Shown: positions 1 to 27,597 of the stretch, in pieces
Position numbering within the stretch: position 1 is the first letter of the stretch
How the letters are laid out: each line of letters starts with the position of its first letter
NCBI GenBank assembly: GCA_963751455.1
Contig: CAVVUN010000001.1
Location: 608,001 to 672,000, forward strand
From: Nitrospirota bacterium
GTDB lineage: Bacteria; Nitrospirota; UBA9217
DNA length: 64,000 bases
Direction: 5' to 3'
Notes under the pieces: model-generated
The model's database searches: none
Seen by the model: only the letters and a program-made list of their open reading frames with translations
What the model was told of the DNA's origin: nothing
Position numbers and translations under genes: made by a program

Positions 1-252
1 ACCGAGCAAGTCGAAACAAAAGTTTTCGAACTCAACGTCTTTTAAAATTTCAAAATGTATACTTTTCATTTTTACCTACTCTTGGATTGTATCAATTTAA
101 CAGCCATAACCGCCTATTGCCCCCATGCCCATTTGCCTTTCGTGCGAAGGCGATGAACCTTGCAAAAACAGTCAAGGGCTTGTTCGGGTCTATTATTTAA
201 TGACTCTCCCTCTCTGATATAATGATCATATAACAAGAAGGAGGTAAGAAAA

Positions 253-513
253 ATGACGAGTGATAAAGATAAAAAATTGGTGACTCCAGAGGATTTATTG
301 CACGTTTCTGATGTGGCAACTTCTGGAATACTTGCCGTTGCATCGATTTTATCCCATATTGTTTGCATCCTTGCTGATCAATTGAGCCTCGATCGAAAAC
401 TCCTGATTCAAGAAATTAATCGACTTTATGCGCCGACAGATAAATCCGAAGTTTATCAAACAGCTTATAATAACGCTCGTCGACTGCTCTTGGAAAGTCT
501 TCAACAAGAATAA
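253..513 (+). CDS. hypothetical protein (86 aa), opposite orientation to the integron cassettes
   Basis: ORF preceded by the SD-like GAGGT (241-245); no recognisable family. Confidence 0.5.
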   Translation: MTSDKDKKLVTPEDLLHVSDVATSGILAVASILSHIVCILADQLSLDRKLLIQEINRLYAPTDKSEVYQTAYNNARRLLLESLQQE

Positions 514-689: not shown

Positions 690-741
690 ATATAACGCGA
701 AGATGAGCCCCGTCCCGTGGGGCTCGATCTTCTGGTTGGAA
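690..741 (-). other. integron attC site (52 bp) closing the DUF6680-like cassette
   Basis: Minus strand: R'' TTCCAAC, 5 nt, L'' GATCGAGC, loop, L' GCTCATC, 5 nt, R' GTTATAT. It starts a few bases after the stop at 747, and R'' is complementary to the GTTGGAA that opens this cassette. Confidence 0.85.
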
Positions 742-746
742 GCACA

Positions 747-1358
747 TCAAGATACAGGAGAATTTGGCGCGTCAGGTGTAGCGGGGCCGCCTACTTGTGG
801 CAGTGACGTGGCAGCGTCGGGCTTGGTTGCTTGCCGAGGTGGTAACGCGATAGTAGCGGTTGGCAGGAATCTTTTATTTTGCAAGATTTCAAGCCAAAGT
901 TTTCTCGTTTGGTAATTATCTTTATCTGAATCATCGTAAGCGGAGGGATAGTATGACCCGGCTTTTATTTGGACCTTATCAAAATTATATCCAAGATTTT
1001 TTGACATCTCATACAGGAGGTCAACAAGTAATTCGGCCTTCCGGGTGCCCCACATGTTTTTTGGGTATTGTTCGTCGGCCAAATGATTCGTATATAGACG
1101 AGCTGCGGCAACGACAGATGATGATGCATCGGGGGGAGCTTGGAACTCTAACTCCACAAGATTCAGAGCTTCAACGTGCATTGCTGCTAGGGGTGCAGAC
1201 CGAGTGGCCATTAGAGTTCTAAAAATATGCACCTTTCGATCACGAGAATCTTTTCTGTGTCTCAAGGCTTCGGTAATACGCACAGCGATAATTGGGCCTA
1301 CGACGACAGCGCCGATCATGATTATATCGGTAATTTTAATTGTCCAATCCCAAGACAT
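747..1358 (-). CDS. DUF6680-like membrane-anchored protein, integron cassette 2
   Basis: N-terminal TM segment GAVVVGPIIAV followed by IFRTLMATR...HVEALNLVELEF; SD AAGGAG; bounded by attC sites. Confidence 0.75.
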   Translation of the reverse strand: MSWDWTIKITDIIMIGAVVVGPIIAVRITEALRHRKDSRDRKVHIFRTLMATRSAPLAAMHVEALNLVELEFQAPPDASSSVVAAARLYTNHLADEQYPKNMWGTRKAELLVDLLYEMSKNLGYNFDKVQIKAGSYYPSAYDDSDKDNYQTRKLWLEILQNKRFLPTATIALPPRQATKPDAATSLPQVGGPATPDAPNSPVS

Positions 1359-1425
1359 ATGCGATTCTCCTTTTCTTTTGACTTTGTGGCCCGCTGACCC
1401 GGGAGTCGAGCGTGTGGTTGGAAAT

Positions 1426-1481
1426 TTCCAACGACGAGTTCACATGCCGCGAAGCGGTCGGCGTGGAACGACAAGTTAGAT
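1426..1481 (-). other. integron attC site (56 bp) closing the ATPase-TIR cassette
   Basis: Minus strand: R'' ATCTAAC, 5 nt, L'' GTTCCACG, loop with CCGC-TTC-GCGG hairpin, L' TGTGAAC, 5 nt, R' GTTGGAA. R'' is complementary to GTTAGAT at 4394-4400. Confidence 0.88.
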
Positions 1482-2739
1482 GTTTTATGGTACGTTAAAT
1501 ACTCTCGATTCGTGCAACAAGTTTGTAAATAATTTCTTCCGTTACTTTGTTTGACAATTCCGCTGGAGGTATACCAGCCTGAGAAAAGTGTATTCCTACG
1601 ATATCTTTGGGGATTCCCGGAAAAGATGTTTGATCAAGGTAAATAGGAATAACCGCCGCCTCGGGAACGCGAGGTATAAAACATTCGCGTTCAAATGTTG
1701 GCCATATTTTTTCAAGATGATGGATGTCAAGCAGGCAAGCTATAAATCTGGACTTGTCACCGAATATTTCCAGGAAGGTTTTGTGCCAAGCTTGGCCCAA
1801 GTAATTTGCTTCAAATAGCTCATCAAAGAAAACGGAGAAATCGAGTGTTTCCAATTGGTCTTTTATCAATTTTGCTAAATTTCTATTTTCTCCCGCAAAT
1901 GAAATGGCAAAATCGAAATCAAAATCACGCCCACCCGTACGGAACCCACACCGTTTTCTGAGATCCTCCCAATTCAGATGTTTGACATAATAAAATAAGG
2001 CCGGGTCTTCTATTGCAAAGTGCTTGGTGGCCGGGTTGTAATAAAAATAACGTTCGCAAATGGGCTTAGAATCAATAAGTATGGAAAGCCTTTTTTCCTT
2101 TACGTTATTGATGCTGCCGCGAACATTCGGATTAGCATTTGCAAGTTCCGTGAGATCAACTATAGAACTCTCTTGCTCGCTCACGCACTTCAACAATTTA
2201 AGGTAGGGATCATTTGTAGATCGAAATCTATTGCCGCGGCAGAATTCGGTGACAGGTTCATTGTATGCGTGATCTAACCGGTCAGTTACCTTGCGCCTCA
2301 GCGTTGGAATGTCATAATTGAGACCGACTTTCGTGTCGCAGGTTTTAGTTATGTTGTTAATAAGGCAGATCGCTTGGCAGACTAATTGGGTTAACCAATA
2401 GTCACCTTTTGTTTCTTCGTAGATTGAATCATGATTGCTGATCTTGATGTTTAGCTTATTCTCGCCCTTCAAGATTAGTTCTTTTGTGGTTTCGATTGGT
2501 GCGGGTTTTATACGGTGAATTCCACATCGTTTTGATATGTCGTGAACAAGGTGAATTAACTCGCTGCCAACTTTATTTATTCCAATAATCACAATCTTTA
2601 AACGAGAGCCCTCTTCGTAATCCTCGGCAGCGACCTTGATCAGATTCGCAATTTTTTCTTGACGGTCATTGTCGAGGCGGTGAAAGTCGTCTATCACATA
2701 GCGCCCCTGTTCTGTTCCAGCGGCAATAGATAATATTTT

Positions 2740-4128
2740 GGTAGTGTAGAAAAGGAGAGACTTTGGACATGAAGTAACAACAAATTGCCCTCCATTTTAT
2801 GGATAATAGTTTTGGACGAAACTAACCATAAAACAGGAGGGCAATATGGGTGTTACCCCACAAAGGAAAGGTATCACCATCAGTTTTGATTGTCAATTTG
2901 AAGTGCATTTGAAGGACAGCTCTCTTTCATCAATACTCGCCGCCTTTGCCGAGCTTTTGCCGCAGATTTTGACGGACTTCATTCAGAAAGTGCTTGTAGG
3001 CTTTGGCGAGCATGTGATGGCTCTTAAGAAAAAGCCTTTTGCCTGCGGGTGCGGCAATGATCGGGAATTCACATGGAAGACGCGGCACGGGAAAAAGACT
3101 AAGATTCATGCCTTTTACCAATGGGTCTGGTTACAGCAGCTCCAGGTTGTTTGCAAACGCTGTGGGAGTAAGCTCTACATCACCCGAAAGCTGCTCGGAA
3201 TGAAGCCGAAAAAGCGAATAGCGGCAGAAATTTATCGAAAGCTTGGGCTTCTGGGTTCCTTGACAACCTTTCGTGTGGCGGAGAAGATCGGCAAGATGTT
3301 CGGCTGGGCCGTGGACAAGATGACGGTCTGGAGCGCTGTCCAAAAGACGGGGTCGGAAATAGAGTTCAAGGTTGATGAAAAGGAGCTTCCCCAGGGCGAG
3401 GCTGACGGGACCGGGATCGGCATCAAGGGAATCAAGAAGCGCGGGAAGGAATTGAAGGCGTTCATACAGTACAAGAAGGGTGGCGGCGTGCGGGTGGCGG
3501 GCCTTGATATCGGGAATTATAACGGGTCCTGGGACAACCTTTTCAAGAAGAGTCTCAAGGCTCTGGGGAGCTTCACCCGTCCGTTTTCCTTAATCACCGA
3601 CGGCGACACCTCCATCCTGGATGCTCTTAAGGGGAAGGTGAAGATAATTGTTCAGCGCTGCTTGTGGCATATTCCCTATCAAGCGAAGTATGTGTTGTGG
3701 CAGGACAAAGTGAAGCGTAAGAGCGAGGACTGGTTGTATGTGATCGTGGAGCTGATGGAAATCTGCGCGATACGGCCGTTTGTAGACGACAAGCAGACGA
3801 TAGCCGCGATGATCGCTTCGAAGAAGGCCCGGCTGGATGAACTGATAAAGCGGTGCGCTGAGAGAGAATATACTCACACAGCCGCTTATCTTGAAAATGC
3901 CCGCCCGGATATGTTTACGGCGATCAAGAAGAGATTAGACGGTAAGACCACGAGCAAGGTGGAGCGACTCATGCGCACGGTCAATATGCGGGTAAACGTG
4001 AGCAAGTGGACCGAGGCCGGAGCGCTGAATGTCATGAAAGTCCGGCTGGCTTATTACTATAACGGATTTGATGCATAATGCGCGTAAAATGGGGGGCTTT
4101 TGTCAGGTCTCCACTTGACAACGCTACC
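2740..4128 (+). mobile_element. ISH6-like insertion sequence, 1389 bp
   Basis: Imperfect terminal inverted repeats GGTAGTGTAGAAAAGGAGAGAC / GGTAGCGTTGTCAAGTGGAGAC; 8-bp target duplication AATATTTT at 2732-2739 and 4129-4136. Confidence 0.9.
2846..4078 (+). CDS. DDE transposase (ISH6 / Mutator-like)
   Basis: GEADGTG, LITDGD, QRCLWH and TTSKVERLMR motifs; SD GGAGG; lies inside the TIRs. Confidence 0.88.
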   Translation: MGVTPQRKGITISFDCQFEVHLKDSSLSSILAAFAELLPQILTDFIQKVLVGFGEHVMALKKKPFACGCGNDREFTWKTRHGKKTKIHAFYQWVWLQQLQVVCKRCGSKLYITRKLLGMKPKKRIAAEIYRKLGLLGSLTTFRVAEKIGKMFGWAVDKMTVWSAVQKTGSEIEFKVDEKELPQGEADGTGIGIKGIKKRGKELKAFIQYKKGGGVRVAGLDIGNYNGSWDNLFKKSLKALGSFTRPFSLITDGDTSILDALKGKVKIIVQRCLWHIPYQAKYVLWQDKVKRKSEDWLYVIVELMEICAIRPFVDDKQTIAAMIASKKARLDELIKRCAEREYTHTAAYLENARPDMFTAIKKRLDGKTTSKVERLMRTVNMRVNVSKWTEAGALNVMKVRLAYYYNGFDA

Positions 4129-4393
4129 AATATTTTGGGAATGTCTTTGGCTTTTCTTGCACTTAGATATACAAATGGAGCTCCAGAAATGTTTTCCTCA
4201 ATAATTCGACGAACCGTGGTTGTTTTCCCTGTGCCGGACTGTCCCTCAATAATTACGGGTTTTCCAGGGTTACGTATATCAACAAGTAACTCATTAAAAT
4301 TTGGAGGATTGACAAAAGTAAATGCGGGCACTCCTTCTGTTCGAAAGATTTCCTCAACCGGGTATATCATATTGCCTCCAATATCAATTTAAA

Positions 4394-4400
4394 ATCTAAC
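4394..4400 (-). other. probable attI crossover point (G/TTAGAT)
   Basis: GTTRRRY match 24 nt upstream of the cassette-1 start codon, complementary to the R'' of that cassette's attC, with no attC hairpin upstream of it, and lying between intI and the array. Confidence 0.7.
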
Positions 4401-4575
4401 CAGTGTTTGAAGGGACGGAAACCGTCCCGTGATTTACGAAAAACCGGTATTAGTCTTCGAGAAAATGCACATTCGATCAATAATGCGCACTTTTTTGCTG
4501 CCGTGGATGCGCCCAGTCTAATACCGGAATTCCGGTATTAGTTTGATGCATTTCTGCAACTTTTCATTAATCGCG

Positions 4576-4604
4576 AGTATATTTTATGCTTTCCGGCATG
4601 TCAA
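4576..4604 (-). promoter_or_regulatory. cassette promoter (Pc equivalent), sigma70 type
   Basis: TTGACA-17 nt-TATACT pointing into the cassette array. Confidence 0.8.
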
Positions 4605-4667
4605 GATAAAGTGTTGACTATTCAGGTTGGAATACTCGCAGCGATAATTTTCTCGAATAAGAAATCT

Positions 4668-4700
4668 GGATTGCCGCGTCGCTTTGCTCCTCGCAATGAC
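4668..4700. repeat. half copy of the GTCATTGCGAG-type palindromic repeat
   Basis: GGATTGCCGCGTCGCTTTGCTCCTCGCAATGAC matches one arm of the elements at 14746-14822 and 54356-54467. Confidence 0.7.
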
Positions 4701-4745
4701 GGCATAAAAAACAGAAACATTTTTAAAATTATTTTTGTTCTGCAC

Positions 4746-4774
4746 TTGACAAGTGAACATTTGTTCACTATACT
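4746..4774 (+). promoter_or_regulatory. intI promoter with a palindromic operator (LexA-box-like) in its spacer
   Basis: TTGACA (4746-4751)-17 nt-TATACT (4769-4774); the spacer holds GTGAACATTTGTTCAC (GAAC-N4-GTTC). Confidence 0.8.
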
Positions 4775-4826
4775 TTTGTTACCTCGTAAGGTTGAGATTT
4801 CTTAACGTTATGGAGCGCCGGCGGCC

Positions 4827-5402
4827 ATGCAACCTGTACCTAAAGATATTTTGGCTAAATTTGACGGACTTCTGAAACAGCGGAATGTCCCGCTGTTCTC
4901 CCGAGCCGGTTACCGAAAGTGGATGCTATACTTTCTCGACTTTCGCGCCAAATATCCGCTTCCTGACGCCAAAACGGATCAAGTGAAGTTGTTCGCCGAC
5001 AAGTTGCGGTCAAAGAATCAAACCGCCGCGCAAGTTGAGCAGGCAGCGGATGCGATTTCCTTGTTTTTCGCTTTACATCGCTGGGAAAAGAATGTGTCTT
5101 CATCGGCCACCTGGCAGATTGTGTCCCCGGCAAATGTGCCTCGGATAAAATACGATCGAGCTCCGGAAGCGGAATTGAAAAAGGAATTCAGCATGGTGTG
5201 CGAACCCCCGGCCTCTTCCATGCCGTACGCACCGCGGCTCAGAAGCGGTAAGCAATACGACGAATGGCGCTGTCTTCGAAAGACCGCGTCTTCGGCATGG
5301 GACAAGGTAATAGCGCTGCTCGCTGACGAGATCAAGATTCGGAGTTCAAAGTTCTTGATTCAAGAGGAAACTTTGCATATCTCCTGCCGGCTCTTTCCCT
5401 AA
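4827..5402 (+). pseudogene. intI: integron integrase, N-terminal part only (catalytic domain deleted)
   Basis: SAM-like N-terminal domain (YRKWMLYFLDF...QVEQAADAISLFF), then WDKVIALLADEIKIR, where similarity stops; no RHRHY residues; divergent from the attI/attC array. Confidence 0.75.
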
Positions 5403-5480: not shown

Positions 5481-6023
5481 ATGTCTGTGAAGTACGCCAT
5501 GCTCGGCATCCTTGCGGAAAAGGACCTGCACGGGTATGAACTCAAAAGCAGCTTTGACGAAAAGGTCGGTGAGTTCTGGAGCCTGAACTACGGGCAGATA
5601 TACACTACCCTCGACCGGCTGGAGAAGGAAGATCTCGTCACCTATGACCGGCAGACACAGGACAGGCGGCCGGACAGAAAGATCTACAGCATCACCCGGA
5701 AAGGCAGGAAGGAGCTTGACGAATGGCTTGCCACACCGGTCAACCGCGTGCGCGCCCTGAGGGACGAATTCTTCATTAAACTCGTGTTCATGGACAAGAA
5801 CAATCCCGCGCCTGTCCTTGATCTGATCGAAAAGCAGAAGACCCTCTATCTCAAACAAATGAACCGGCTCACTCACCAGAAAGTCGAATTAAAGAAAAAA
5901 CCCAAAGCCCCTGATGCGCTTACCACTGAACTGCTGATGGATGCCGGACTCTTTCACGCGGAAGCAGACATCAAGTGGCTGACGTTGTGCGAAGCGAAGA
6001 TCAAAGCAGCGATCAAAAAATAA
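5481..6023 (+). CDS. PadR-family transcriptional regulator (long, AphA-like subtype)
   Basis: LHGYEL...WSLNYGQIYTTLDRLEKE...RKIYSITRKGRKEL..W plus helical C-terminal domain; SD GGAGG. Confidence 0.92.
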   Translation: MSVKYAMLGILAEKDLHGYELKSSFDEKVGEFWSLNYGQIYTTLDRLEKEDLVTYDRQTQDRRPDRKIYSITRKGRKELDEWLATPVNRVRALRDEFFIKLVFMDKNNPAPVLDLIEKQKTLYLKQMNRLTHQKVELKKKPKAPDALTTELLMDAGLFHAEADIKWLTLCEAKIKAAIKK

Positions 6024-6068
6024 AAACGGTTTAAGCCGCTTAAACGGTTTGAACAGTTTAAACTGTAA
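6024..6068. repeat. five degenerate 9-bp tandem units (AAACGGTTT type)
   Basis: AAACGGTTT AAGCCGCTT AAACGGTTT GAACAGTTT AAACTGTAA between padR and the ATPase gene. Confidence 0.7.
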
Positions 6069-6085
6069 AACCCACGAGGTGAATT

Positions 6086-6808
6086 ATGATTGAGTTGAAG
6101 AATGCCAGCAAAAAATACCAGCAGGGAGCACGGGAAGTTCATGCGTTACGGGATATATCTCTCTTTATCAAGAAAGGCGAGTTCCTCTCCATCATGGGGC
6201 CGAGCGGTTCAGGCAAGAGCACGCTCCTGAATTTGATCGGCGGCCTCGATCAGCCCACATCCGGCCAAATATTTATCGACGACAAGCCGCTCCACGGCAT
6301 TTCGGACAACGAGCTGACGCTGATCCGCCGGAAGCGCGTCGGGTTCATCTTCCAGTTCTTCAACCTTCTCCCGGTCCTGACCGCGATCGAAAACGTGAGC
6401 CTTCCCCTGCTGCTCGGAGGCATCTCCCTCTCTGAGATCAAACCGAAGGCGGTTGCCCTGCTGGAGCAAGTAGGACTTGGCGCCAGAGGAGAGCATCGCC
6501 CTGAACAGCTCTCCGGAGGTGAAATGCAACGGGTCGCCATTGCCCGCGCGCTTGTCACCAACCCGGCTGTTCTCCTTGCTGATGAGCCGACCGGAAACCT
6601 CGATTCCCATACCAGTGAGGAAATATTCATGCTCCTCAAGTCCCTGAACGAACAGGGACAGACTATTGTGATGGTAACGCACGATCCCAAGGCCGCTGCC
6701 TATGGTTCGCGTATCATTACACTGAAAGACGGCGCCCTTTCGGAAGATATATCCATCGGAGGATCCCAGCATGACTCTTGTCAATCTGCTCCGTTATATC
6801 AGTCTTAA
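6086..6808 (+). CDS. ABC transporter ATP-binding protein (LolD/MacB type)
   Basis: GPSGSGKS, LSGGEMQRVAIARAL, LADEPTGNLD, VTHD. Confidence 0.95.
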   Translation: MIELKNASKKYQQGAREVHALRDISLFIKKGEFLSIMGPSGSGKSTLLNLIGGLDQPTSGQIFIDDKPLHGISDNELTLIRRKRVGFIFQFFNLLPVLTAIENVSLPLLLGGISLSEIKPKAVALLEQVGLGARGEHRPEQLSGGEMQRVAIARALVTNPAVLLADEPTGNLDSHTSEEIFMLLKSLNEQGQTIVMVTHDPKAAAYGSRIITLKDGALSEDISIGGSQHDSCQSAPLYQS

Positions 6809-9368
6809 GCGCCTGAAACTGCACAAAGCCCAGACCTTCATGTCCGTGTGCGGCATCGCGCTCGGCGTTTCCACCATCGTGTCCATCGGGATCGTGAGCG
6901 AGAGTGTCGTCCGCTCCTTCGAGGAATCGATCACAAAAATCGGAGGAAAGGCTGCCCTGCAGGTCCTCGGCCCCGAGTCGGGTTTTCCCGAGGAGATGCT
7001 GGACCGCGTCCAAACGGTCGCCGGCGTGGAGCATGCCGTTCCTGTCATCGAAGCAGAAGCACCTTTCGCAAATGCGAAAGAGCGCGCCCTCACGGTCCTG
7101 GGTGTGGATGTGCTTCAGGACAGCCACATGCGGGAGTACAGCGTCTCCGATGAAAGTGCAGATATCCCCGATCCCCTTCTGTTCCTGGCAAGACCCGACT
7201 CTCTGCTCATCACCCGGGAAATAGCGAAGCGCGAAGGTTTCCACATCGACCAGACAATAACATTATCGACCGTGCAGGGTCCGCGAACCCTTCGGATACG
7301 CGGTCTGATGAACCCTGAAGGACCGGCAAAGGCCCTTGCCGGCAACATCGCGATCATGGACCTCTATGCAGCGCAGCTTGCCTTCGGCAAGGAGGGACGC
7401 ATCGACCGCATCGATGTCAGCCTTGTCCGGGGAGAACAGGTGGAAGCGGTCCGTCAGCGCATCATTGCCGCGCTTCCCGAGGGATATACTGTCGAAACAG
7501 CTGCAGGCCGGACCAGGCAGTTCGATGTCGTGGTATCCAATTTCAGCAAGTTCATCAGCACCCTCGGCCTCGCGGCCCTTGTGGCCGGCATGTATCTTAT
7601 TTTCAACGCGGTATCGATCGCCGTGGTGCAGCGGAGGAAAGAGATCGGCATTCTGCGCGCCATGGGCGCCGGCCGCGGACTGATCACGAAACTCTTCCTG
7701 TCCGAGACCATGGTGATCGCACTGGTCGGCTCTTTCCTCGGTGTCTGCGCGGGAATATTTTTCGCCTGGGCATCTCTGAAACCGTTCAGCCGGAGCATGG
7801 AGCAGCTGTACCAATATACCTATGCCGGGTCGACGACGCTCAGTTACTCATGGCGCTATCCGCTGGCCGGGATCGTTATCGGGTTTGTTTCCGCCCTTCT
7901 CGCCTCCTTTTTCCCGGCTCGTTCCGCGGCCCGGATCGCGCCGATCTCCGCAATCCGTTCCCTGCCGCAGTCTGATGACGACCGGTCCGCAAGTTCCAGG
8001 GCGCTCATCGTTTCATTGTGCTGTCTTGCTCTCGCCGGCGTCATGGTCATCCTGTTCACCGTTCTGCACGCCCCGGGCAGGAACATCATATTCACGATCG
8101 TTTTCTGCGCGGAGTTGCTGCTCCTGCTCGGCCTTTCCCTGGCAATGCCGTCCGTTCTGCGCGTCTTCATGAGAGTGTTCCATCGCTTCGCGTCTCCGCG
8201 TCTCGGCGCCACGACCCGTCTTGCCGGGCTGAACATCCGGAAGAACATCGGACGGAACGCCGTGGCATCGGGAGCGGTCCTTCTCGGGCTTTCGCTCTTC
8301 ATCGCCATATCGAACATCATAGTTTCCCTGGAGTATACCATCGTCAACTGGATAAACGTCCAGACGTCATGCGACCTTCTTGTGACCATGGGCCATTCGA
8401 TCACCGGTATGTCGATGCGAAGCAAACCCATGCCCTCGGAGGTGAGGAAGGATATCGACAGCATACCCGGCGTGGCGCTCACTGACGTGTACCGAAGGAT
8501 ATTCATTCCCTTCAGGGACTCGCGGATCTTGCTGGAAAGTGTGGATGTGAGGAAAAGATTGGAGTACGCTTCCTTCATCGTGCTCCAAGGAGATCAAAAG
8601 CGCATCACGGACCTGCTGCCCGGCCAAAACAATGTGATCGTGAGCGAATGTCTGGCCGCCCGCCATGGCATGAGGCCCGGCGATGTCATATCTCTGCTGA
8701 CACCGGCCGGACCGGTGTCCTTCGGAATTGCGGCCGTTATCGCCGACTACAGCTATGACCAGGGCTCCGTGCTTATGGACACCAACACGTATAAACGCCT
8801 CTGGAATGACCGTTTGTCGGACGGGATCGCCGTAAAGATATCCGATAAGGATCAACTCCAGTCGATCCGGGCGGCCATCGTTGCCAAGCTGCAAGCGAGA
8901 GGCGATGTCTACGTGATCACCCTGGACGAATGGAACCGTGAAGTTCGATCCAGCATGGACCGGATCTACTCAAGCTTTCATGCGCTGAACGTGATGACGC
9001 TGTCCATCGCCTGCATCGGCATCATCATTACGCTCGTTGCATCGGTGCTTGAACGGACCAGGGAGATCGGGATCCTGCGCTCTCTCGGAGCCGTGAAACG
9101 CCAAATAAGCCGGATCGTGGTCATGGAATCAATGATCCTGGGTCTTGTGGGAGGTTTCGTGGGCATCGCAGGAGGCGTACTCCTCGGCTGGATGGCGGTC
9201 TACGGCATGGTGCGCGGCGAATCAGGCATGACCGTGCAATACATGATCGATTACCGGGCATTCCTCTGGGCAATCGTATTGTCCGGCGGGCTTTCGGCCC
9301 TGGCCGGGTTCTATCCGGCCCGGCGCGCGGCCAAGACGAATATTGTCGAAGCGTTGGCGTATGAATAA
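6771..9368 (+). CDS. FtsX/MacB-type ABC permease, internally duplicated, copy 1
   Basis: Two periplasmic+FtsX halves; QRRKEIGILRAMGA and ERTREIGILRSLGA; ends PARRAAKTNIVEALAYE. Confidence 0.93.
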   Translation: MTLVNLLRYISLKRLKLHKAQTFMSVCGIALGVSTIVSIGIVSESVVRSFEESITKIGGKAALQVLGPESGFPEEMLDRVQTVAGVEHAVPVIEAEAPFANAKERALTVLGVDVLQDSHMREYSVSDESADIPDPLLFLARPDSLLITREIAKREGFHIDQTITLSTVQGPRTLRIRGLMNPEGPAKALAGNIAIMDLYAAQLAFGKEGRIDRIDVSLVRGEQVEAVRQRIIAALPEGYTVETAAGRTRQFDVVVSNFSKFISTLGLAALVAGMYLIFNAVSIAVVQRRKEIGILRAMGAGRGLITKLFLSETMVIALVGSFLGVCAGIFFAWASLKPFSRSMEQLYQYTYAGSTTLSYSWRYPLAGIVIGFVSALLASFFPARSAARIAPISAIRSLPQSDDDRSASSRALIVSLCCLALAGVMVILFTVLHAPGRNIIFTIVFCAELLLLLGLSLAMPSVLRVFMRVFHRFASPRLGATTRLAGLNIRKNIGRNAVASGAVLLGLSLFIAISNIIVSLEYTIVNWINVQTSCDLLVTMGHSITGMSMRSKPMPSEVRKDIDSIPGVALTDVYRRIFIPFRDSRILLESVDVRKRLEYASFIVLQGDQKRITDLLPGQNNVIVSECLAARHGMRPGDVISLLTPAGPVSFGIAAVIADYSYDQGSVLMDTNTYKRLWNDRLSDGIAVKISDKDQLQSIRAAIVAKLQARGDVYVITLDEWNREVRSSMDRIYSSFHALNVMTLSIACIGIIITLVASVLERTREIGILRSLGAVKRQISRIVVMESMILGLVGGFVGIAGGVLLGWMAVYGMVRGESGMTVQYMIDYRAFLWAIVLSGGLSALAGFYPARRAAKTNIVEALAYE

Positions 9369-9400
9369 ATTTACCAGCAGATTGGACGTACGAGGTTTAC

Positions 9401-11998
9401 ATGAATCTTATCAACCTGCTCCGCTATATCAGTCTTAAACGCCTGAAACTGCACAAAGCCCAGACCTTCATGGCGATCTGCGGCATTTCCCTCGGCGTAT
9501 CCGCAATCGTTTCCATCGGGATCGTGAGTACCAGCGTTGTCCGCTCTTTTGAGGATGCGATCACGTCGATTGCCGGAAGGGCAAGCCTCCAGATAACGGG
9601 GGGGCAGTCGGGGTTTCCGGAAGCAATGCTCGAACGTGTACAGGCAGTTCCGGGCGTGGAATACGCTGTTCCCGTGATCGAGACCACGGCCAACCTTATC
9701 GGCGGCAAGAACCGATCGATCATGATCATTGGCGTGGATATGCTGCAGGATCACCAGATCCGGGACTACCGCGTCACGGATGACAACACCGAGATCCCGG
9801 ATCCCCTGATGTTCCTCGCAAAGCCTGACTCCATTCTGGTCAGCCGCGGCATGGCGGGTTTGAACAATATCGGTATGGACAAAACCATGGAGATCGAGAC
9901 GGTTCACGGAATCCGCTCACTTACCGTGCGGGGCCTCCTTGAGCCTGTCGGCCCGGCAAAAACCATGTCAGACAGCCTCGCAGTCATGGACATTTTCGCG
10001 GCCCAGATGGCATTCGGCAAGGAAGGACGCATCGACCGGATCGATGTCAGCATTCTGCGCAACGAAGACACGAATGCGGTCCGGAAACGGATACAGGCCG
10101 TGCTTCCCGAAGGCTACACTGTCGAATCGCCCGCTGTCCGTTCCAGCCAGATCGAAGCAACCATTTCCAATCTCAAGAGAAATATCAGCAGCATGGGCTT
10201 CGTCGCCATGTGCATGGGCATGTATCTCATCTATAACGCAGTTTCTATAACGGTCGTGCACCGGAGAAAAGAAATCGGCATCCTGCGGGCACTGGGAGCG
10301 ACCCGTGGACGGATCGTGAATCTATTCCTGATAGAAACCCTTATCCTGTCCGTTATCGGATCCGCGCTCGGCATCGGGTTCGGCATCCTCCTCGCTCACG
10401 GGTCGATGGAAGCGTTCGGACAGAACATCGCGGTTGCATATCAACTGAACAATCCGACCTCTGCTCCGCTCATTATCACTCCGGAGCACATTGTTACCGG
10501 GTTCATACTCGGCATACTGACCGGTATCCTGGCCGCACTGTTCCCTGCGTTTGCGGGCGCCCGGGTAACGCCGGTATCGGCCATCCGCTCGCTGCCTTTT
10601 TCCGAGGAGGAATTCATTTCAAAAAGAAAACTCCTCTTCCTGTCCTTCCTGCTGCTGTCAATAACCGCGGTGATGCTGCTCCTCTATGGTGCAATCAAAT
10701 TGAAGTCACCTGGATCCATTGCACTTTTTATCATGACCTCTGAATTTACCCTGATCTTCGGAGTGACCTTTGCCATCCCCTCGGTGCTCCGGAATTTCAT
10801 TTCACTGTTTCAGCGATTCATTGCTCCGCGATTGGGGGCGGTGAGCAGTCTCGCGGGACTGAATATCCGCAAGAACGTCAACCGGAATGCCGTTGCCGCG
10901 GGCGCGGTGTTTCTCGCCATAGGGCTTTTTATCTCCGTTTCGAGCATCGTCTTCTCAGTGCGCTGCTCCGTGATGCACTGGCTCGAAACAACGGCGAACA
11001 GCGATCTATTCGTTACCTCGGGCCACGCCTTCTCGGGCAGCGCCGGAAAGCACGTCCCCATGCCGCTTACAATGAGGAACGAGTTCGAGCAGATAGAAGG
11101 AGTGCGGTTCACTGACATGTACCGGCAGGTATTCATCCCCTTCAAGGATTCCCGCATTCTTCTTGAAAGCGTTGACGTGCGGCGCAGGCTGCAATACAGC
11201 TCCTTTATGGCGACAAAAGGCGATGCCGCCGACATAGGCAGGCTTCTGCCGGGCCGGGATAATATCGTTGTGAGCGAAAACCTCGCAGTCCGCCTCCGTA
11301 TCAAACCCGGTGATTCACTTGTCCTTACCACTCCCCAGGGTCCCGTCAGTTTCGGCGTGACAGCGGTCGTCGTGGATTACGGCTATGAATTCGGCGCTGT
11401 GCTTATGGACAATCTGACATACCAGAAGCACTGGCACGACGGACTGGCCGACATCATCACCGTGCTCGTGAAAGAGAAGCGTGATATTGACCTGGTCCGT
11501 GACGCTATTCAAAAACAACAAGGGAAACAGAAGCGGTTGTTTATCTTTTCGATGGAAGAATACAAGAAAGAAGGCCAAAAGCTGCTGGATCAGATATACG
11601 GCATTTTCCACGCAATGGACATTCTCACCCTCTCCATCGCCTGTATCGGCATCATTATCACCCTGCTCGCGTCGATACTTGAGCGGAGGCGCGAAATCGG
11701 CATCATCCGCTCGATCGGTGCATATAAGGGGCAGGTCTCGAGGGTCGTCGTACTCGAATCCGTGCTGCTGGGCTTTACAGGATGCCTCCTCGGCATTATG
11801 TGCGGCAGTGTACTGGGCTGGATGGGCGTAGACGGTTTTATAAACGGCGAGGCCGGGATGACCGTGCCGTACCGCATCGACTACGCCGCGATTCTCAAGG
11901 CAAGCGTACTCACGCTCGTCTTTTCAACCCTGGCCGGGCTTTATCCAGCGAGACAGGCGGCAAAGACCAATATCGTCGAGGCCCTGGCATACGAATGA
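9401..11998 (+). CDS. FtsX/MacB-type ABC permease, copy 2
   Basis: Same architecture; first ~25 codons almost identical to copy 1. Confidence 0.93.
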   Translation: MNLINLLRYISLKRLKLHKAQTFMAICGISLGVSAIVSIGIVSTSVVRSFEDAITSIAGRASLQITGGQSGFPEAMLERVQAVPGVEYAVPVIETTANLIGGKNRSIMIIGVDMLQDHQIRDYRVTDDNTEIPDPLMFLAKPDSILVSRGMAGLNNIGMDKTMEIETVHGIRSLTVRGLLEPVGPAKTMSDSLAVMDIFAAQMAFGKEGRIDRIDVSILRNEDTNAVRKRIQAVLPEGYTVESPAVRSSQIEATISNLKRNISSMGFVAMCMGMYLIYNAVSITVVHRRKEIGILRALGATRGRIVNLFLIETLILSVIGSALGIGFGILLAHGSMEAFGQNIAVAYQLNNPTSAPLIITPEHIVTGFILGILTGILAALFPAFAGARVTPVSAIRSLPFSEEEFISKRKLLFLSFLLLSITAVMLLLYGAIKLKSPGSIALFIMTSEFTLIFGVTFAIPSVLRNFISLFQRFIAPRLGAVSSLAGLNIRKNVNRNAVAAGAVFLAIGLFISVSSIVFSVRCSVMHWLETTANSDLFVTSGHAFSGSAGKHVPMPLTMRNEFEQIEGVRFTDMYRQVFIPFKDSRILLESVDVRRRLQYSSFMATKGDAADIGRLLPGRDNIVVSENLAVRLRIKPGDSLVLTTPQGPVSFGVTAVVVDYGYEFGAVLMDNLTYQKHWHDGLADIITVLVKEKRDIDLVRDAIQKQQGKQKRLFIFSMEEYKKEGQKLLDQIYGIFHAMDILTLSIACIGIIITLLASILERRREIGIIRSIGAYKGQVSRVVVLESVLLGFTGCLLGIMCGSVLGWMGVDGFINGEAGMTVPYRIDYAAILKASVLTLVFSTLAGLYPARQAAKTNIVEALAYE

Positions 11999-12062
11999 CA
12001 AACTGAAATATGGTTATTGAACGAAGACGCTGTCAAACCTCTACCTGCGTGTAGGAGATCCT

Positions 12063-27129: not shown

Positions 27130-27481
27130 CCGGCCCACTCGTGAAGCAAAGCGCGTGAGATTTCCCCCTCAGCTCCACCAAATTTTCAAAGGGTTGACTT
27201 TCATCGGTCAGCCCTTTTTCATTTGACTGTGCCAGTTTTGTGTCAGTTGACACGCGGTACACGTCGTCCATTACAAAAACTGCTTTCTGTAAGTGTGCCG
27301 GTGCAAGGTGGGCATACTTCATCGTCTGCTTCAGGCTCTTATGTCCAAACAGTTTTGAGAGTGTGGCAATGTCGATCTTGCCGGACATCATAGGAAGGCT
27401 CGCGTAAGTGTGGCGCAGGTCGTGAAAGTGGAAGTCGTTTATCTTCGCATTCTTTACCGCTGTATTGAAACTCCGCTTCAC
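27089..27481 (-). pseudogene. C-terminal fragment of a tyrosine recombinase (phage/island integrase)
   Basis: FHDLRHTYAS, FGHKSLKQTMKYAHL; reads toward the att-like copy. Confidence 0.85.
27163..27182 (+). repeat. direct repeat of the tRNA-Ala 3' end (att-like copy 2), followed by a terminator-like hairpin
   Basis: TCCCCCTCAGCTCCACCAAA, preceded by the same GTGAAGC.AAGCGCGT.AGATT as copy 1. Confidence 0.9.
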
Positions 27482-27597
27482 ATTCCCGTTAGACTTTAAG
27501 GTCAGTGGATCTTGAAGAATAACTTGCCGTCAGAAGAAAGCTAACGATAAAAGCAAAGATGCGTCCCTGCTTTATCATAAAAGTCCTCCTTCTCACC

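Follow-up and report, generated by a model that had tools for sequence, protein, structure and literature searches.

The integrons closest to the one reported here are those of class 1 and of Vibrio, in which a palindromic operator for LexA, the product of the host's lexA, overlaps the integrase promoter (PintI1 and PintIA, respectively), and in which the cassette promoter (Pc) and the integrase promoter (Pint) diverge. Cambray et al. 2011 (PMC3108266), a source drawn on here, like all those cited below, through its accessible passages, searched 1,103 intI promoters for 15 LexA motifs, those of Firmicutes included, and found the E. coli type only, from which they concluded that hosts in which LexA binds a different motif have lost its control over intI; the accessible text of three reviews (PMC8876359, PMC8946536, PMC10500605) names no other motif for intI. 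Our own literature search, which covered few subscription papers and no supplements, found no report of a LexA box of another type at intI, or of a LexA motif in Nitrospirota. We analysed a window of 64,000 nucleotides (contig CAVVUN010000001.1, positions 608,001 to 672,000), which corresponds to G000:C1:608001-672000, G000 being the genome analysed, other G numbers relative genomes and L numbers extracted loci. Its left end very probably holds a decayed chromosomal integron, with intI cut down to an N-terminal domain and a Pint that the host LexA would repress through the palindrome GTGAAC-N4-GTTCAC.

The exact palindrome occurs six times in the 5.7 Mb of G000, against 0.3 expected and 0-2 for each of the spacer-length controls, and all six copies lie between -35 and -10 hexamers, three of them ahead of intI copies and one each ahead of the dinB-lexA1 operon, lexA2 and an unassigned region. 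The sixth exact operator, at G000:C2:525827, lies in a perfect promoter, and no gene could be identified after it. The palindrome was present in 20 of 24 genomes of the same family (a single site with the reversed-pattern control) and in 4 of 16 sampled genomes of other families; with a -35 hexamer attached, it was found in 52 of 63 family genomes and never with the control. Across G000 and 20 relatives, 37 of 42 exact sites precede intI (8), lexA2 or umuD-like genes (15) or dinB-type operons (14, two of them placed by position upstream of lexA1), and 18 of 19 lexA2-like loci have the palindrome within 1 kb upstream. Counting -35-attached sites on contigs that bear an intI match, 17 of 60 N-terminal intI matches, in 11 genomes, carry it 36-79 bp upstream (boxed intI hereafter), and G007 has two more intI with the palindrome at one or two mismatches. 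Six boxed intI are full length with all catalytic motifs, and attC sites lie beside intact boxed intI in G053, G016 and G005 (13 loci searched). No E. coli-type CTGT-N8-ACAG was found at 4677-4880 (criterion: within -100/+50 of intI), and none of the 35 loci of long-form IntI relatives examined upstream, five of them with <170 bp of upstream sequence, has the palindrome.

The promoters of both lexA-type genes, dinB and umuD-like genes have this palindrome in common, which is likely to be a LexA box of Gram-positive-like type. Both LexA proteins score above the TIGR00498 cut-off and have the Ala-Gly cleavage site and the Ser/Lys dyad. Because the DNA-binding domain of lexA2 is missing in G005, G007, G016 and G018, all with boxed intI, LexA1, encoded in the dinB operon, would be the likelier repressor. 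In L169-L174, from several genera, lexA2 has lost the N-terminal DNA-binding domain and is now UmuD-like, with the operator kept. In many relatives (L218, L219, L223, L225, L228, L233), the boxed dinB-lexA1 operon begins with a conserved open reading frame (ORF) of ~80 aa; in G000, dinB follows the promoter directly, without this ORF. No LexA or DinB match was found in 114 overlapping intI loci with flanks of 1.5-6 kb or less. RecA is encoded in all 24 relatives, and a true loss of recA from G000 was rejected, contig C15 ending at the gene before it.

Compared with PintI1 and PintIA, the operator here is GTGAAC-N4-GTTCAC, not CTGT-N8-ACAG, sits in the -35/-10 spacer and is known from sequence alone. 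Its core, GAAC-N4-GTTC, is identical to that of the Gram-positive Cheo box (PMC2248561), with the same palindrome geometry, and the right half GTTCA is shared with the M. xanthus box CTRHAMRYBYGTTCAGS (PMC9705874), although the strict M. xanthus pattern does not match here. Unlike both boxes, it has GT/AC as outer bases in place of C/Y; here it was not found upstream of recA in the 18 of 24 loci examined. Given that the survey of intI promoters recovered the E. coli type only, GTGAAC-N4-GTTCAC on intI looks like an independent recruitment to the SOS regulon. A LexA operator not of E. coli type on a subclade of long-form intI, which is likely and well supported by comparative sequence evidence, would be a new variation on a known regulatory link. 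On balance, we favour the view that a family likely belonging to the Nitrospirota wired a long IntI with two SAM-like domains into the host SOS regulon, independently of Proteobacteria, by way of a Gram-positive-like box.

The locus itself is a real integron, but a broken one. The initial annotation had described at least two attC-bounded cassettes in an array continuing left of position 690; attC sites, core complementarity, attI, Pc and an intI remnant are all where it placed them, and five more attC sites extend the array to G000:C1:603180, giving seven sites over 9.2 kb from attI (4400). All seven lie on one strand and show R''-L''-L'-R' inverted repeats with an extrahelical base. On the minus strand, attC1 (1481-1426) reads ATCTAAC...GTTGGAA and attC2 (741-690) TTCCAAC...GTTATAT, both with the canonical arrangement attributed to them, having 5-bp spacers and one extrahelical base in L''. 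The exact complementarity of R'' to the GTT core likewise holds at 7/7 positions in both, each pairing with the core that opens its own cassette (GTTAGAT at 4400-4394, GTTGGAA at 1432-1426); taking GTT/AAC as fixed, two such full matches would arise by chance with a probability of ~(1/4)^8. In the five further cassettes, R'' matches the core at 5-6 of 7 positions.

A covariance model built from this array (R1) is circular on the window's own sites and so not proof. The support from a covariance model that the initial annotation had made a condition came from an independent one (R2), built from six attC sites taken from two annotated class 1 plasmid integrons and run over 84 kb with rough E-values, which found both window sites with the right ends (attC1, E 0.011; attC2, E 0.04). 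Seven of its eight rows are array sites (five distinct of the seven, two of them doubled through the overlap of the window with L001), and the eighth, outside the array, has an E-value of 1.7. In the reverse test, R1 was run on the two annotated class 1 integrons and hit seven sites, each of them lying between cassette genes. Bottom-strand folding, the other check proposed, bore out attC2 strongly (z -4.8) but attC1 weakly (z -1.6, 16 of 200 shuffles folding equally well). A further candidate attC near 100-200 was rejected, having a fold z of +0.8 and no hit from either model. The usual length of attC sites is 57-141 bp; attC2 is short, as had been remarked, but no one-off, being one of a small family of attC-like sites of 51-53 bp in G000. 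The genome as a whole has at least 62 attC-like hits in 20 clusters (150 of 1722 candidates scored).

Of the parts of a complete integron, attI, attC and Pc are present and an IntI with the IntI-specific additional domain is absent beside the array, which falls under the IntegronFinder definition of attC clusters without an integron-integrase (CALIN; at least two attC, no detectable intI nearby). The locus is a CALIN-type remnant of a sedentary chromosomal integron, not a complete integron, and as such ordinary. It resembles the CALIN and decayed integrons of Cury et al. 2016 (PMC4889954) and Nemergut et al. 2008 in having at least two attC without a detectable adjoining integrase and an insertion sequence (IS) inside the array, and intI pseudogenes are common among integrons (about a third). 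Unlike CALIN, it keeps attI, Pc and Pint, together with an intI remnant lacking the region detectable by IntI C-terminal or catalytic profiles.

We placed attI where we did because homology among the five intI platforms of G000 ends exactly at the core AAC, and the G|TTRRRY crossover point is present at this platform edge; its L and R boxes are presumed equivalent to, and named after, those of attI1. Several extra attI-like platforms without intI occur in G000 (C1:397384, C15:273860, C15:1070389). The TTGACA-17-TATACT promoter that the initial annotation had firing into the array was found on the minus strand (4604-4576), and a second copy, on the plus strand (4746-4774), reads into intI. Pc matches the consensus at 11 of 12 positions, and both hexamers are near-invariant in six aligned platforms, which makes it a conserved predicted cassette promoter. 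In the C2 platform (L015:1115-1510), a clean 55-bp deletion takes the Pint -35, operator and -10, with Pc and attI intact. Between attI and Pc (4398-4542) lie repeats like the attI core (CCGGTATTAGT at 4444 and 4532, plus an inverted copy), which might bind integrase as accessory sites, perhaps through the extra SAM domain. Directly behind Pc (4615-4626), a TTGACT hexamer stands at the position of the Pint -35 of unboxed relatives such as L121, which suggests a leftover of an older promoter. In unboxed long-form intI of other phyla (L037, L045, L049, L052, L056), the -10 is closely followed downstream by a shared motif of another kind, CTAAC-N-G-N-ATA, often in repeated copies, which may serve integrase autoregulation or another repressor.

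The intI homology of the ORF at 4827 ends at ~5342, the last ~19 codons being foreign. It matches residues 1-173 of the G000 paralogues, and similarity to the Vibrio IntI (2A3V) begins at paralogue residue 175; because its match stops before IntI similarity begins, the ORF is only the extension preceding an ordinary integrase, and it has no TIGR02249 or PDB match of its own. The initial annotation was right to see a divergent intI remnant, but more than the catalytic domain is gone, the core-binding domain being missing as well. A match to a non-integron recombinase family, which it had named as a reason for doubt, was not what we found: full-length relatives score 372 bits against TIGR02249 (cut-off 265), with 2A3V as best structure, and the family is IntI. 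Modelling of the full-length relatives (~475 aa; relatives 417-508 aa) gave an N-domain of four helices, then a disordered linker, then a normal IntI, with a predicted local distance difference test score (pLDDT) of ~90 for the N-domain. In hhalign, this domain could be aligned to the core-binding domain of the same protein with a probability of 77% (control 1%); it is likely a duplicated SAM-like core-binding domain. Long-form relatives occur in Desulfobacterota, Nitrospirota, Brocadiia and others, the nearest named ones being Nitrospirota records that grouped with the family's sequences; one of them, L055 (62% identity across residues 211-435), belongs to a record whose label is archaeon. 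Nemergut et al. 2008 (PMC2426708) described deltaproteobacterial 'clade 15' IntI as ~120 aa longer through a shared fusion. The long IntI described here is likely this clade; the accessible passages on clade 15 do not say what the extra part is, whereas here it is a second SAM-like domain with a disordered linker.

Searches with TIGR02249 and with the window protein found no intact intI in G000, whose assembly has gaps, and for this assembly the earlier description of the array as frozen holds. Truncations, insertions or deletions, rather than homopolymer errors, have disrupted all five copies that have the N-terminal domain, as well as one C-terminal fragment. The candidates rejected as intact were C1:553975, which stops right after the RHS motif; C2:447005, with a 108-bp in-frame insertion carrying a stop and with Pint lost; C3:358105, with a 140-bp insertion and a frameshift; and the copy on C12, a deleted relic. 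The 140-bp element (G000:C3:357438-357577) has seven near-identical full copies in the genome, the 108-bp insertion (G000:C2:448265-448372) is a REP-like repeat with one TGA, and at G000:C1:555271-555420 the tandem-repeat end of another multi-copy element strikes an intI paralogue.

Several observations weigh against the proposed LexA control of intI. In the 18 of 24 recA loci examined, no site with two or fewer mismatches lies within 1.4 kb upstream of recA, the best matches having 3-5; 43 of the 60 family intI copies lack the strict site, and five of the 42 exact sites, which precede other genes or none, are unexplained. The box and integrase integrity do not go together (6 of 17 boxed intI intact, 16 of 38 unboxed with long open frames), the counts come from kin genomes and are not independent, and the phylum of the family is taken from the labels of neighbouring sequences. 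The number of origins differs between alignments: in a tree of the N-domain (47 rows, 90 columns), all 11 boxed rows fall in one supported clade with two unboxed rows, which would be two losses, but in a longer alignment of 36 rows, from which the linker and 11 distant rows had been taken out, they fall into two groups, both one gain and two gains of the box on intI being possible. A site on recA is usual, not universal, in LexA regulons, and M. xanthus recA1 is likewise without a box (PMC9705874). The bare recA promoters and the unexplained sites, with a LexA link read from sequence, would also suit a real integron whose palindrome is bound by another repressor of dinB, lexA and intI, for example of TetR or phage type. 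We think this quite improbable, as the site stands in both lexA-type promoters, the pattern of autoregulation, and with two Y-family polymerases and umuD-like genes across the family, and its core matches the known Gram-positive LexA box. We give equally little credence to the site having reached intI as a passenger, the whole promoter block (-35, box and -10) copied from an SOS gene with no selected role. The TTGACA-box-TATA block is indeed near-identical between dinB and intI promoters, boxed intI are no more often intact than unboxed ones, and the C2 copy lost the block through its 55-bp deletion; yet boxed intI of seven genera, at 50-70% protein identity, retain the half-sites and differ in the flanks and the 4-bp centre, a pattern that suggests selection on the operator. 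A copied origin would, moreover, be compatible with later function.

Two further alternatives concern the state of the locus. An intact IntI elsewhere in the chromosome might act in trans on an array that is not frozen: the assembly has gaps, recA itself lying beyond the end of C15, attI and attC are intact, attC-like hits are numerous and the first two cassettes have perfect cores. Set against the breakage of all five N-domain copies and the C-terminal fragment, none of it by homopolymer errors, we consider this rather unlikely. It would be more surprising still if the truncated ORF were kept as an SOS-induced DNA-binding protein, a free SAM domain on the attI repeats modulating Pc or incoming integrases. 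The break does spare the N-domain, folded in the full-length model, and its promoter, and breaks near this domain border occur in several relatives too, but the breaks differ in kind (140-bp repeat, deletion, frameshifts), most copies keep remains of the downstream gene and the end point is not conserved. Returning to the decayed integron under putative LexA control, its history would be as follows. Cassettes would have been inserted at G|TT by the long-form IntI, with its second SAM-like domain, disordered linker and normal IntI, and in part of the family intI would have come under the host SOS regulon, alongside the dinB-lexA operon, the lexA2/umuD-like gene and a second Y-family polymerase. 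With the operator filling the -35/-10 spacer, LexA bound there would block RNA polymerase until its RecA-driven self-cleavage. All that this switch would still express in G000 is a fragment without the catalytic domain; unless an assembly gap hides an IntI or one is acquired, the array is likely to be static.

From attI, the units of the array (features of the window in Table 1) are a broken NTPase-TIR gene; a DUF6680 gene; an inverted 86-aa ORF with a Mrr-like nuclease; HEPN AbiV with a 139-aa ORF; and three units with ORFs of 331, 265 and 219 aa, each without a Pfam match, the 331-aa protein having a weak partial CARF match. Three of these genes are defence-like (NTPase-TIR, Mrr-like and HEPN AbiV). 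In cassette 1, a P-loop NTPase-TIR gene is split by the IS, and with the IS removed in silico the frame has 492 codons and is 82% identical over its length to P0002. This 492-aa family is widespread (889 hits among 3453 candidates; Atlas cluster 'nSTAND3') and has no NCBIfam family match. Residues 89-268 match the PADLOC candidate PDC-S59 (partial, E 9e-13), and these domains and this match suggest a putative anti-phage role. The gene is like the STAND-like NTPase-TIR single-gene proteins (PDC-S59) in fusing a P-loop NTPase to a C-terminal TIR_2, but it matches PDC-S59 only in part and the copy here is broken by the IS, which is flanked by an 8-bp target duplication (2732-2739 and 4129-4136). 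Imperfect inverted ends and 8-bp duplications are found in eight copies of this ISH6-like IS, whose transposase scores 191 bits against NF041731, below the cut-off of 240; the seven other copies in G000 are 99.6-100% identical, which points to recent IS activity. At the left end of the IS (2781-2848), an inverted repeat pairs with the ribosome-binding site of the transposase. The IS is oriented opposite to the array, and transcripts from Pc would have to cross it.

Table 1. Positions of the integron features within the window
Feature	Position	Strand	Remarks
Mrr-like restriction nuclease gene, start (247 aa)	1..69	-	Runs on left of the window
86-aa ORF in cassette 3	253..513	+	Opposite to the array; no family match; strong ribosome-binding site
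attC2	690..741	-	52 bp; closes cassette 2; R' GTTATAT opens cassette 3
Cassette 2 gene, DUF6680 family, 203 aa	747..1358	-	PF20385, E 1e-48
attC1	1426..1481	-	56 bp; closes cassette 1
Cassette 1 gene, 3' part (rest of NTPase + TIR)	1495..2731	-	TIR_2; 400-aa ORF from GTG at 2697
ISH6-like IS	2732..4136	+	Including duplications; IS 2740-4128, 1389 bp; transposase 2846-4078
Cassette 1 gene, 5' part, ~80 codons	4129..4370	-	Walker A P-loop
attI simple site	4394..4412	-	L box CTTCAAA, 5-bp spacer, R box G|TTAGAT, crossover 4400
Pc, TTGACA-17-TATACT	4576..4604	-	Faces the array
Pint, TTGACA-17-TATACT	4746..4774	+	Predicted to drive intI (sequence and platform alignment)
Palindrome GTGAAC-ATTT-GTTCAC (GTGAAC-N4-GTTCAC)	4753..4768	.	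Fills the Pint spacer; likely LexA operator
intI remnant, 191 aa	4827..5402	+	Extra N-terminal SAM-like domain and linker

On both sides of the integron are ABC operons (FtsX-like permease) that are paralogous and include PadR, TetR-like and AraC regulators (5481-12000 in the window; L001:2089-8921), and a piece of another tyrosine recombinase with a weak TIGR02249 match lies on the minus strand at 27293-27484.

These results give a candidate LexA motif and a minimal regulon for an uncultured family, and name intact long-form integrases suited to the study of the extra SAM domain, with the complete boxed integrons of G053, G016 and G005 as ready test cases. If the predicted control is true, cassette shuffling came under SOS control on at least two occasions, which breaks the published rule that integrons escape LexA control in hosts with divergent LexA motifs. 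A conserved operator of non-E. coli type at the promoters of 17 intI in 11 genomes would demonstrate that the coupling of cassette shuffling to damage has been selected repeatedly, and not only inherited.

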